A DNA stretch of 64,000 nucleotides from Octopus vulgaris (Eukaryota). Below are positions 1,369 to 61,705 of the stretch, piece after piece. The notes beneath the pieces are model-generated. The model was not told the origin of the DNA. It searched no databases and saw only the letters and a list, made by a program, of their open reading frames with translations. The DNA lies in assembly GCA_951406725.2 (NCBI GenBank), contig OX597820.1:58838001-58902000 (forward strand). Reading direction: 5' to 3'. Within the stretch, counting starts at the first letter, position 1, and the number at the start of each line of letters is the position of its first letter. The position numbers and the translations under genes were made by a program.

Positions 1369-1563
1369 GTGCAATGGTACAATTATTTGGCTGAAACAAA
1401 ATACCACCTTCCTTATCAGAAAGACACTATAGCTTTTACTATAATTGGTCGACCTGATATGTTTGAGAAAGCATTTAAAACATTCGTATGTAACAACACC
1501 AGCAAGCCACATATTGATACTGACTACAAGTTTATCATGTTTTATATGAAGAAGATCCAACAG
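1369..1563 (+). CDS. MMACHC: MMACHC-like paralogue A, exon 2 (VQWYNYLAETKYHLPYQKDTIAFTIIGRPDMFEKAFKTFVC...MKKIQQ)
   Basis: ttgcag|GTG acceptor and CAG|gtaagc donor, phase 0/0, 195 nt (same as human exon 2). Matches human VAWYNELL..FHLP...TLAFLV..PAMFDRALKPF. Exon 1 not seen; probably upstream of the window. Confidence 0.88.
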
Positions 1564-1691
1564 GTAAGCTTTTGAACATAATCCAAGAGTTAATCTAAAC
1601 TCAAGCCAAATTTTCAATACAGAACGATAGAATGATAAAACTGCATATACACACATCTTTGATCCATTTAACAGAAAGAAAGTCTCTAGAC

Positions 1692-57300: not shown

Positions 57301-60300
57301 CTATACTTGATATTGATGCCACCATAGAAGCCATCAAGCAAAAGGTATCTGCTAAAGCTGCCCGCATAGCGAGGTATGAAAAGCGTATTAGGTTCTTCAG
57401 GGATAACAACATGTTCAAAAATAACCCCAAAAATTTTTACAGGAAGATAGGAAAAAAGTCTGTACTATCAAAAGAAGAAGTGCAGGGATTTTGGAATAAA
57501 ATTTGGGCAGAAGAAAAAACACACAGCGAAAAGGCCCCCTGGATTGATAGAATATCTGAAGAACTGGACTCCTTAGAAGAGCAAAAGTGGGAGGGTGTCA
57601 AGGTAGAAGATATAAGATCTGCTCTCAGGAGGTCAAGCAAATGGAAGTCTCCAGGAAAGGATAAAATCCCTAACTTTTGGTTGAATGCCTTCCCAGAGAG
57701 CCATGAACTGCTAGCAGAACTTTACAATGATGTTTTGCAACACCCTAGTAGGATGCCTCCTTGGCTAGTTAATGGGTTAACATTCCTGCTTCCAAAAAGT
57801 GAAGAAACAAATGAACCCAAAAACTATAGACCCATAACCTGCTTAACAACTATGTATAAAACACTAACATCTGTCCTGACGGAATATACCTATAGTTTTT
57901 TGACAGACAGCAGCATATTCCCTAATGAACAGAAAGGATGTAAACGTGGATCCTACGGTTGTAAAGATCAACTACTCATCAATAAGATGATCTTAGAAGA
58001 TTGTCACAAACGACACAAAAACTTATCAATAGCCTGGATAGACTATAAAAAGGCTTTTGATAGCCTACCACATAGCTGGATTAATAAATGCCTAGAAATG
58101 TATAAGATAGCACCTGCTCTGCGAAACTTTTTGTCTGTAAGCATGAGATCATGGAGAACCACACTAACTTTGAACAGTGACAATGAATCTCTAAATGCTG
58201 GTGATGTAAAAATTTCATGTGGCATTTTCCAGGGTGACTCACTATCACCGCTCCTCTTCTGTTTAGCCTTAATACCTCTCTCAAAACTGCTCAATGACGC
58301 GCAGTACGGATATAAAATGTTTGATAAAAATATAAATCATCTCATTTACATGGATGATTTAAAGCTCTTTGAAAAAATGACCAACAACTCAAGGGCTTAC
58401 TAGCGATTGTCAAACAATTCAGTGATGACATCAGAATGCAATTTGGCCTCGATAAGTGCGCAAAAGCTACCTTTATCAAAGGAAAAATGACAGAAACATC
58501 TAACGTTAACCTTGACCAGCAGAATGTCATAAAAGAATTAGACCCAGCAGAGAACTACAAGTATCTAGGGGTAATTGAAGGAGAAGGAATAAGGCATTCA
58601 GAGATGAAGGAAAGGATCAGGAGAGAATGCTATCGCAGAGTAAGAGCAATACTCAAAACAGAGCTGAATGCGAGAAACAGGATCGAAGCGATCAATGCAT
58701 TAGCCATACCAGTCGTGACTTACAGTTTCAATATCGTTAACTGGTCAATTACTGAAATATGTAATCTTGACAGAAAAATACGAAAACTGTTGACAATGCA
58801 TAGAATGCACCACCCTAAGGCAGATACAGAACGACTCTATCTGCCAAGAAAAGAGGAGGCCGTGGACTTTTACAACTGGCAATAACAATGAAGATTGCTA
58901 CAATTGGCCTAGACACCTACCTGAAAAACTCTGAGGACTGGATGTTAAAACTTGTCTCAAAACATGAAAACAAGAAAGCATCATACTCAGTAACAAAACA
59001 GGCAAAGGAATATCTAAGTGAATTTCGAATACAACAAATTTCGGAATTAGAGATAGACATACAAGAAACAGGCACAGAAAAAGCTAAGCGCATGAAAGCC
59101 CGTGCTAAATCTGCGGCCTTAGATATTCTGAATGATAAATGGCAAGAAAAACCTCTCTATGGCAAATACCCAAAGAGAGCAAATAATGCAGATGTTGACA
59201 AAGCCCTGACCCATCAATGGCTAATGGCCTCTGGCTTAAAATCTGAAACAGAGGGTTTTATCATAGCAGCTCAAGATCAATGCCTACCAACAAGAAACTA
59301 CCAGGCCAACATATTAAAGATCAGAAGCAGTCCAACGTGTCGTGTATGCAAGCAACAAAATGAAACCATTGACCATGTGGTCTCCAAGTGCAGTCTTCTA
59401 GCGCCTACAGAGTATCTCAACAGGCACGATAGAGCTGCACAATATATTCACTGGGTAATCTGTAAAAACCTGGATTTGCCCCATGAAAAAAACTGGTGGG
59501 AACACAAACCACCCCCAGTGCTTGAAAATGACCACATCTCACTCCTCTGGAACTTCACCATTCAAACTGACAGAAAGATAGATGCAAATAGGCCAGACAT
59601 CATATTGAAAGACATCAAACAAAGAACATGCCTCCTCATTGATATGACTGTCCCAATCGATATAAACGTATCTGTCAAGACCTACCAAAAACTGAGCAAA
59701 TATAAAGATCTTGAAATAGAAATCAGCAAAATGTGGAACCTGAAGACTAAAACAATACCTGTTGTCATAGGTACCCTGGGAATGATAAGCAAAAGGGGCT
59801 GATAGCTACCTAACTCAGATACCAGGAAACCCAAAAATGGCAGAAATTCAAAATATAGTGCTCATGGGAACTGCTCATATCCTACGCAAAATACTTTCTA
59901 TGTAATCTCAAGGTTTAAAACAAACATAATTTTCGGTTTAAAAAAAAACAAGAAAACTTTTTTTAGACATTCATTAGTACAACATATATGGCACACTAGG
60001 CATAACAACAACATGAACTTCCAACCCTGTTGTGTCGTGAGGTCTCTGGGTGAGACTTGGAGCCAACTTGTACAAATATAAAGCAAAAGTCAAGCATAGA
60101 ATAATAATAATAATATAATAATAATAATAATAATAATAATAATAACAATAATAATAACAATAACAATAATAATAACAATAACAATAACAATAACAATAAT
60201 AATAACAATAATAATAATAATAACAAAATAATAATAACAATAATAATAATAATAATAATAATAATAATAACAATAATAATAACAATAATAATAATAATAA

Positions 60301-61705
60301 TAATAATAATAATAATAACAAAATAATAATAACAATAATAATAATAATAATAATAATAATAATAATACCAATAATAATAACAATAATAATAATAATAACA
60401 AAATAATAATAACAATAATAATAATAATAATAATAACAATAATAATAACAATAATAATAACAATAATAATAACAATAATAATAACAATAATAATAATAAC
60501 AATAATAATAACAATAATAATAATAATAATAACAATAATAATAATAATAATAATAATAATAATAACAATAATAATAACAATAATAATAATAACAATAATA
60601 ACAATAACAATAATAATAACAATAATAATAATAATAACAATAATAATAATAATAATAATAACAATAATAATAACAATAAATATAATAACAATAATAATAA
60701 CAATAATAATAATAACAATAATAATAATAACAATAATAATAATAACAATAATAATAATAATAATAATAATAATAATAAATGCCCTGATGCAGTACCAGGC
60801 AGTGGCTCTCATGGCTTCTGATCTTAACTAATTGGAAGTGTTATCATGTACATTGTTTTGTCTTGGTATAAAAGATGGGCTACAGCAAATATTCTGCTCA
60901 ATACCACAGATTTGCTTGTCAGTTGTTTGACCTTAACCAGTTGAGCATGTCCCTTAGTGGCTGACGATATGTGCATCTCTGATCACGAGCAGAAGTAGTG
61001 GGGGAGCATCATAGCCATGTGTTGAGAGGGATTCTTTGGGGTTTGAATAATTCACCTCTGGAAACATGGGTGGTTCTTTCAACATCCTTAAACAACCCTT
61101 ATTCAGGGACCTTTTGAGCGGGAAGGGCTACTCAACCTGAAGAAAATTCAAACTGGGCCCCACCTGCAAGGTCATGTGCTGTTTATCTTGATATGAGATC
61201 ACCATGTCGCGCACATATGGTTGTGATGCATGTGCCTGGTGTACCCTTATCAGACGGGTAGTCATGATGGGTATATTGGGCTTCGTATATTTTACCCCAG
61301 TGTCACTTTGATGGCATGCACTGCTCTCTCATTCAATAATAATAATAATAATAATGATAATGATAATAATAATAATAATGATAATGATAATAATAATAAT
61401 AATAATAATAATACTAATAATAATAATTATAATAATAATAATAATAATAATAATAATAATAATAATAATAATAATAATAATAATAATAATAATAATAATA
61501 ATAATAATAAGAAGAAGAAGAAGAAGAAGAAGAAGAAGAAGAAGAAGAAGAAGAAGAAGAAGAAGAAGAAGAAGAATGAATGAATAATAATGAATGAATG
61601 AATGAAAACGAAGACATTACTAACTGCAAATGGATGGGCTTCATATCCATACTGGTTTAGGGCGGCGTTGAAAGCAGCCAAAATGGTTACCACTGCACCC
61701 AACAT
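41932..61705 (-). CDS. MMACHC: MMACHC-like paralogue C, complete 4-exon CDS: 61705-61625, 49364-49158, 45252-45103, 42300-41932 (268 aa)
   Basis: All introns are GT-AG, phase 0 and at the human MMACHC positions. The joined frame is open (27+69+50+122 aa). Confidence 0.85.
43060..43888 (-). mobile_element. Penelope-like element (RT C-terminus + GIY-YIG endonuclease)
   Basis: [39 protein letters not shown]. Confidence 0.9.
45103..45252 (-). CDS. MMACHC: MMACHC-like paralogue C, exon 3 ([50 protein letters not shown])
   Basis: atatag|AAA acceptor, AAG|gtcagt donor, 150 nt. Exon and flanking intron align with 23138-23287. Confidence 0.92.
45402..45968 (-). mobile_element. mariner internal-deletion derivative
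   Basis: TA-flanked TIRs TTGGGTTGTCCGGAAAGTTCGTGCTGATTT / [41 protein letters not shown]-terminus joined to a [18 protein letters not shown]-terminus. Confidence 0.9.
46150..46460 (-). mobile_element. RTE-like LINE 3' fragment with (GAT)n tail
   Basis: LLLWKP...RGR..SY.D....DTG....L..AM.DR..WR. Confidence 0.7.
47630..48203 (+). mobile_element. Tc1-like internal-deletion derivative
   Basis: TIR TGCAGGAAGTAAATAGACA / TGTCTATTTACTTCCTGCA; HTH remnants [17 protein letters not shown] and [11 protein letters not shown]. Confidence 0.8.
48795..48973. mobile_element. hAT MITE
   Basis: CAGTGGTTCTCAA / TCGAAATCACTG ends; 8-bp flanks ATTTAGAC / ATTTAGAG. Confidence 0.7.
49158..49364 (-). CDS. MMACHC: MMACHC-like paralogue C, exon 2 ([45 protein letters not shown]...QKFWD)
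   Basis: aaccag|GTG acceptor, GAT|gtaagt donor, 207 nt, phase 0/0. Confidence 0.92.
49826..50057 (+). mobile_element. SINE family 2, single unit
   Basis: GGTGGCGAGCTGGCAGAAACGTTAGC head through AGCCCCTTGTGGGCAATAAAGAAA tail. Confidence 0.85.
52795..53135 (-). mobile_element. Tx1/L1-like ORF2 end plus 3' UTR
   Basis: [23 protein letters not shown], then a UTR ending AATAAAGAAA and (ATT)n. Confidence 0.55.
53578..54109 (+). mobile_element. About 530-bp non-coding interspersed repeat within (AAT)n, copy 1
   Basis: Near-identical to 60804-61333; (AAT)n on both sides. Confidence 0.85.
54300..54767 (-). mobile_element. SINE family 1, full length
   Basis: Reverse complement of the 23497 element. 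Confidence 0.85.
55220..55720 (-). mobile_element. SINE family 2 with about three tandem body units
   Basis: TACTTAATTTATCGACC.CGAAAGGAT..AGGCAAAGTCGACCTCG occurs three times; single head at about 55718. Confidence 0.8.
56035..60099 (+). mobile_element. Near full-length Dong/R4-like RLE LINE inserted in (AAT)n; ORF broken by about 4 frameshifts
   Basis: [59 protein letters not shown]...K..KY; long (AAT/AAC)n on both sides. Confidence 0.93.
60780..61333 (+). mobile_element. About 550-bp non-coding interspersed repeat within (AAT)n, copy 2
   Basis: Near-identical to 53578-54109, with about 25 extra 5' bases. Confidence 0.85.
61625..61705 (-). CDS. MMACHC: MMACHC-like paralogue C, coding exon 1 ([27 protein letters not shown])
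   Basis: gaaaATG with an upstream in-frame stop; 81 nt as in human exon 1; L..YGYE.HPF versus human L..FGFE.YPF; GCA|gttagt donor. Confidence 0.82.

Follow-up and report, generated by a model that had tools for sequence, protein, structure and literature searches.

The proteins described here belong to CblC, a family known for a cytosolic enzyme whose arginine pocket is almost invariant, Arg161 and Arg206 both being present in 163 of the 190 homologues with residues in both columns of our alignment. For the human protein, MMACHC or CblC (PF16690; PDB 3SOM, 3SC0, 5UOS), the available part of PMC9464900 reports that glutathione binding falls 25-40-fold and dealkylation is impaired once Arg161 is lost, that hydroxocobalamin binding survives in R161Q, that Gln131 bonds cobalamin, and that Arg161 mutants retain decyanation and unmask a thiol oxidase activity. 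The invertebrate CblC proteins of Caenorhabditis elegans (PDB 5UJC) and Trichoplax resemble those described here in fold and in a C-terminus shorter than that of mammals; in the available part of PMC11910325 the Trichoplax protein keeps the arginine triad and processes cobalamin with glutathione, and no secreted or arginine-less CblC is mentioned. The window analysed here is a 64,000-nucleotide stretch of the Octopus vulgaris genome (G000:C7:58838001-58902000), part of a cluster of three old MMACHC paralogue types at G000:C7 58.64-59.06 Mb. The types were named X, Y and Z (Z is the paralogue A of an earlier note on this stretch, and Xw is the window copy of X). They are a real and apparently undescribed form of CblC that shows signs of secretion, and a tentative reading, a little short of probable, is that they are secretory-pathway proteins of the CblC fold, perhaps carriers, which would bind cobalamin but not dealkylate it with glutathione.

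Residues are numbered after the platypus protein, which agrees with the human one at 104, 161, 206 and 230 by motif. Position 161 is Pro and position 206 is Ala in all three types, which therefore lack the arginine triad of the glutathione-dependent CblC dealkylase. The earlier note had held that all three were without the glutathione-binding arginines; this stood for Arg161 and Arg206 and failed for Arg230, which X and Y keep, together with a new Arg at position 159. The same note had Arg230 replaced by Thr in Z, as was found for Z alone, and Asp104, which we take to contact cobalamin, lost, as the alignment confirmed for X, Y and Z. Arg159 was considered as a general substitute for Arg161 and rejected, position 159 being Ser in Octopus bimaculoides Y, Thr in Z and Ser or Tyr in cuttlefish-type members. 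Replacement of the PNRRP loop, which presumably mediates dimerisation, was likewise dropped as a hallmark of the paralogues, because the canonical octopus and Argonauta genes are also without PNRRP. At positions 77 and 80 (glutathione contacts, in a loop that aligns poorly) Y has Asp/Asp, X1, a complete X gene outside the window, Ser/Asp, Z Asp/Tyr and the canonical octopus protein Ala/Asp.

In the cobalamin cavity, X1 and Y keep Gln131, Gly147, His122 and Trp200, and the cuttlefish-type and oyster members all keep Gln131, Gly147 and His122; Z has Thr131 and Glu147, and Xw has His131. Loss of dealkylation in X, Y and Z is likely, and the case for cobalamin as the ligand is about evenly balanced. 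It is because X1 and Y keep the four cavity residues but are without two of the three arginines that we infer proteins which bind outside the cytosol and have no glutathione chemistry.

Family membership was clear from the PF16690 profile, with scores of 214 bits for X, 205 for Y and 133 for O. bimaculoides Z (cut-off 27). An AlphaFold model of intact Y (predicted local distance difference test 90.7) superposed on human MMACHC with a template modelling (TM) score of 0.84 and a root-mean-square deviation (rmsd) of 1.5 Å, in agreement with the earlier proposal that the fold is kept, here as a prediction for Y. The predicted model of P0235 gave a TM score of 0.78, and the P0235 and Y models, both folded with alignments that included canonical homologues, match 3SOM at rmsd 1.5-1.6 Å. 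With human MMACHC the paralogues share family, fold and four coding exons, and X1 and Y share His122, Gln131 and Gly147; they differ from it in the absence of Arg161, Arg206 and Asp104, in a hydrophobic N-terminus or signal peptide, in new cysteine pairs and N-glycosylation sequons, and in that several of them exist beside a canonical gene.

The signs of secretion, overlooked in the earlier reading, lie in the N-termini, a cysteine pair and the sequons. A signal-peptide-like stretch precedes helix 1 in all six cuttlefish-type proteins examined (P0072, P0227, P0232-P0235), and one of the two methionine-starting oyster proteins (P0218) has a signal-peptide-like N-terminus. The octopod paralogues have no N-terminal extension; their helix 1 is nearly uncharged and hydrophobic, with 0-1 charged residues at positions 2-21 as against 7-8 in two canonical cephalopod proteins. 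Peak 8-residue hydropathy over the first 30 residues reached 2.11 or more in all 15 cephalopod paralogues counted, several of them near-copies, and did not exceed 1.8 in any of the 47 canonical-type proteins; the count left out two canonical-type rows truncated at the N-terminus, the O. bimaculoides Z model, which lacks exon 1, and the oysters. Within a 25-row alignment, Cys68 and Cys241/242 were present in 16 of 16 cephalopod paralogues versus 0 and 1 of the 9 others, and Cys30 and Cys176 co-occurred in the same 8 rows, which suggests two disulfides. Sequons were commoner in the paralogues (median 3 versus mean 1.1; p=1.7e-6, the rows not being independent). Hydropathy, cysteine pairs and sequons would all point away from the cytosol.

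A separate canonical orthologue, as the earlier note had proposed to look for, is present on another contig, G000:C2, and keeps Asp104, Arg161, Arg206 and Arg230. It has the intron phases of the paralogues and groups with those of cephalopods in trees; it differs from them in its Asp104 and full arginine triad, its charged N-terminal helix, its one Cys and its absence of sequons. The gene is present as two copies, each a complete four-exon frame, in 21-kb blocks 99.4% identical (G000:C2:24429040-24498130); the first copy has an exon 2 longer by 6 nt, and the duplication is either real or a matter of haplotypes.

Selection on the paralogues, claimed earlier, was confirmed as purifying. The ratio of nonsynonymous to synonymous rates (dN/dS, Nei-Gojobori) was about 0.3: 0.31 for X1-Y1 (dS 0.76), 0.32 for X1-Z1 (dS 1.97) and 0.32 for Y1-Z1 (dS 2.04), with X and Y exons 2 and 3 each one codon short in the computation and the large dS values near saturation. 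Annotated orthologues of X, Y and Z are found in O. bimaculoides, and Argonauta has three tandem relatives, consecutively numbered on one contig. A profile search of 1486 candidates gave 19 hits, further cuttlefish-type members among them (for some records this label was inferred from clustering or tree position), and a search of the ESM Atlas returned general MMACHC clusters only. The family is not lineage-specific, contrary to the earlier claim, relatives being present in Argonauta, among the cuttlefish-type proteins and in oyster.

Cleanly aligned exceptions at position 161 were Pro or Leu in octopods, Asp in Sepia and Crassostrea, Gly in one record, one tuatara entry and one Gln/Gln sequence; four more were misaligned isoform tails. 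Arg206 is kept in the cuttlefish-type and most oyster members and lost in octopods. In the trees, cephalopod paralogues join cephalopod canonical genes, apart from oysters (98/97; a quick tree likewise), and a single origin of all Arg161-less genes was not rejected by the approximately unbiased (AU) test (p=0.064; p=0.53 with the Sepia fragment and a different row set). The Arg161-less genes of cephalopods and oysters may have one origin or two, as the free trees split them and the AU test does not reject one. The 426-aa Sepia pharaonis model P0247 appears to fuse two adjacent genes: its first part is an MMACHC without Arg161 and with a charged N-terminus, its second a secreted-type paralogue that lacks its signal peptide.

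On the tentatively preferred reading, X, Y and Z would enter the secretory pathway, where they would be disulfide-bonded and N-glycosylated and would not perform glutathione dealkylation of cobalamin. The signal peptide of cuttlefish-type members would be cleaved off, and in octopod members helix 1 itself would act as an uncleaved signal or anchor. Outside the cytosol, perhaps in the gut lumen or haemolymph, X and Y would capture or carry cobalamin by binding it intact, and the processing of cobalamin would be done by the canonical enzyme.

Several points weigh against this scheme. The putative signal peptides were called by eye and from hydropathy. The hydrophobic octopod helix packs as helix 1 in the Y model, and no upstream signal-peptide exon common to X, Y and Z was found within 13-20 kb, the hits being mostly microsatellite frames. 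Loss of Arg161 is not tied to secretion, oyster P0221 and P0222 and the first half of Sepia P0247 having charged N-termini. Asp104 is lost in all paralogues, Z has neither Gln131 nor Gly147 and Xw no Gln131, and X and Y retain Arg230 beside the new Arg159, though O. bimaculoides Y has Ser159. As to the sequencing runs considered below, their RNA status is a guess and the upstream letters of their contigs were unseen.

The ten MMACHC-like coding exons of the window have AG/GT sites, zero stops and phase 0 introns throughout, matching the canonical octopus gene, and in this the earlier description was accurate. Its three paralogues hold as three sequence types; as three genes they do not, only X being complete. 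The features of the locus are as follows.

61625..61705, minus strand: Xw exon 1, uncharged hydrophobic N-terminal helix
49158..49364, minus strand: Xw exon 2, Cys gained at the positions equivalent to human 30 and 68
45103..45252, minus strand: Xw exon 3, His-rich patch at 128-136
41932..42300, minus strand: Xw exon 4, with Pro161, Ala206 and Arg230, derived changes at 144-158 and 203, and a basic amphipathic-looking tail
27316..27522, minus strand: Y exon 2 (broken copy, exon 1 deleted)
23138..23287, minus strand: Y exon 3 (broken copy)
4696..5037, plus strand: Y exon 4, strand switched by inversion, protein sequence identical to intact Y exon 4
1369..1563, plus strand: Z exon 2 (broken copy)
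14022..14165, minus strand: Z exon 3, within the inverted segment
10412..10786, minus strand: Z exon 4, within the inverted segment, with Pro161, Ala206 and Thr230
1692..4597, plus strand: transposon copy 1, with terminal inverted repeats and a 609-codon open frame; left inversion breakpoint
17181..19673, minus strand: transposon copy 2, in reverse orientation to copy 1 and 98.3% identical to it, without its first 414 bp; right inversion breakpoint
4598..17180, no strand assigned: inverted segment holding Y exon 4 and Z exons 3-4
Complete C7 genes outside the window: X1 at 58641233, Y1 at 58667458, X2 at 58735912, Z1 at 59033695

X is the sole collinear, complete gene of the window (61705..41932, minus strand, 268 codons). 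The other two were rejected as intact genes, both being scrambled by inversion and neither having an intact exon 1: Y has exon 4 on the plus strand and exons 2-3 on the minus strand, with exon 1 deleted, and Z has exon 2 on the plus strand and exons 3-4 on the minus strand, with an exon 1 that sits 2.3 kb before the window and has lost its ATG and first 16 codons. At the C-termini, X has its basic tail (window 41932-42000, minus strand) and Z a hydrophobic, Cys-ending one (window 10412-10480, minus strand), either of which might attach to a membrane; Y has neither type. Reverse-transcriptase retroelement frames lie in X intron 1 (window 56119-59802, plus strand) and between Y and X (29787-30494, minus strand).

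Xw has changed fast. Over 615 nonsynonymous sites it differs from X1, in a pair picked after it had been seen, at about 37 (6.0%), and over 177 synonymous sites at about 5; blastn counted 37 mismatches in 801 exon columns; in non-coding sequence 376 of 15354 aligned columns differ (2.45%). By Fisher's test the nonsynonymous differences exceed those of the introns (p=1.7e-6), the comparison with synonymous sites gives p=0.063, and synonymous sites are no different from introns. Exon 3 alone has 14 nonsynonymous and 0 synonymous differences, which produce the His-rich patch. With O. bimaculoides X as outgroup, 29 of the 34 polarisable differences fall on the Xw branch, most of them at 127-158 and including Gln131His and His151Glu; nearly all are also present in X2. 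The excess of amino-acid change fits positive selection on the pocket, and Xw may be a recent duplicate with a rapidly remodelled pocket.

These data bear on a second explanation, that the proteins are in the secretory pathway and have turned the cavity to another ligand (another corrinoid, a tetrapyrrole or pigment, a metal complex or a dietary compound), with specificity still diversifying. The Xw excess over introns and its concentration on one branch speak for it, as do the loss of Asp104 throughout and the conservation of Z, without Gln131 and Gly147, in two species. We consider it possible but rather unlikely, given that Gln131, Gly147 and His122 are retained in X1 and Y and throughout the cuttlefish-type and oyster members, and that the nonsynonymous-synonymous comparison alone reaches p=0.063.

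A third and unlikely explanation is that they are cobalamin enzymes without glutathione anchoring, membrane-attached or inside an organelle lumen, which are still redox-active by flavin-dependent decyanation or by oxidation of a thiol other than glutathione. The fold is intact, X and Y have Arg230 and the new Arg159, and some Arg161-less relatives look cytosolic. The loss of Arg206 as well in octopods argues against such enzymes, as do the cysteine pairs, which suggest an oxidising compartment; outside the cytosol, reduced flavin and thiols are scarce. The activities kept or unmasked in human Arg161 mutants (PMC9464900, available part) would be a precedent for them.

When the 2.8-Gb genome was searched with the PF16690 profile, 29 of the 32 candidates scored were matches, and every match fell within C7 58.65-59.06 Mb or C2 24.44-24.49 Mb. 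The intact X, Y and Z genes are 130-200 kb from the window, and C7 holds five complete open frames. Its copy number may be inflated by uncollapsed haplotypes, because X2 and Xw lie in 35-kb blocks that are 99.3% identical and an assembly gap is nearby. A stop is present in one copy of Y exon 4, and one copy of Z exon 4 is interrupted. The annotated O. vulgaris model P0240 joins transposase codons to Z exons 3-4 and an unrelated tail, and was built from the broken copy.

The scrambling of window Y and Z fits an inversion between two copies of a 2.9-kb transposon, which stand in opposite orientation at both breaks. Intact Z intron 2 is split at one 8-bp site into window 700-1691 (plus strand) and 17180-16592 (minus strand), and intact Y intron 3 is split likewise into 23770-19772 (minus strand) and 4598-5300 (plus strand). 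To the left of transposon copy 1 stands the Z-site 8-mer and to its right the Y-site 8-mer, and the 3' end of copy 2 is joined to the Z-site 8-mer; three of the four expected inversion junctions were found, the fourth being deleted. From the 8-bp target sites and general family features we take the element to be a hAT-type DNA transposon. It may have been active recently, because copy 1 keeps the 609-codon open frame (window 2265-4094, plus strand), with a Spin-doc zinc finger, and four copies at about 98% identity or more occur in the 464 kb examined. Two more arrangements with the same inversion junctions, G000:C7:59037753-59056745 and 58667458-58699242, have Z exon 2 at both ends in one and Y exon 2 at both ends in the other, as if they were recombinants of inverted and uninverted copies, or assembly mosaics.

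Among the matches listed, Y exon 4 was found in 20 of 24 runs from 9 studies, none of them on record as RNA. Four runs were compared over window 1300-15500, their RNA or DNA status being a program's guess. In all three presumed RNA runs (three studies) the Y exon 4 contig starts at 4694, two bases before the exon, and extends 101, 257 and 453 letters into sequence that is not from 1300-15500; in the presumed DNA run the contig reads through the Y intron from 4598. In X2, one contig stops at the acceptor of Z exon 4 and continues for 112 letters. These contigs fit spliced transcripts of the intact genes. No chimeric Z exon 2-Y exon 4 joint was seen among the matches listed, which carries no evidential weight.

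Duplicates without conserved function, decaying in a region that is unstable and partly mis-assembled, would account for two broken window copies out of three, the damaged exon 4 copies and the near-identical 35-kb blocks beside a gap, but are most improbable as a general explanation, being largely refuted for X1, Y1 and Z1 by the five complete C7 frames, dN/dS about 0.3 at dS 0.8-2, orthologues elsewhere and the spliced-looking contigs, and holding for the window copies of Y and Z. Of the outcomes named beforehand as telling against the earlier reading, neither a lack of transcripts with dN/dS near 1 nor the same substitutions in the canonical orthologue was found; another arginine at the 161 or 206 sites with normal activity was not encountered either, and the new Arg159 of X and Y could partly replace Arg161.

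The proteins to which the preferred reading, as cobalamin carriers, would liken the family are transcobalamin, intrinsic factor and haptocorrin. The likeness is one of proposed role only, as secreted non-catalytic cobalamin binders; the fold of those carriers is unrelated, and the paralogues match PF16690 instead. PF01122 and PF14478 had no match in the five family proteins scanned, and an exon-by-exon search of the genome for the transcobalamin family found nothing, uninformatively, as the PF01122 control also matched nowhere. We found no paper on MMACHC and octopus, nor is this family described among the papers listed by our literature searches, subscription journals and supplements lying outside them. 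In the available part of a squid gut transcriptome study (PMC5999225) an MMACHC homologue was used for quantitative PCR, with primers that do not clearly tell the paralogue type.

The label of ordinary cyanocobalamin reductases that these proteins bear in databases is probably wrong. Coleoids, and perhaps molluscs widely, may have turned a cytosolic B12 enzyme into an exported family for B12 capture and transport, octopods by making a helix into an uncleaved signal, with one recent copy selected toward a new ligand; this fuller account we hold to be doubtful but worth stating. If true, the family would be a fold-independent counterpart of intrinsic factor and transcobalamin, and its secreted, glutathione-independent branch a new use of the CblC fold and a testable candidate for B12 uptake and transport in molluscs. 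It would also offer natural variants in which binding and catalysis are parted at residues that human cblC disease mutations affect.

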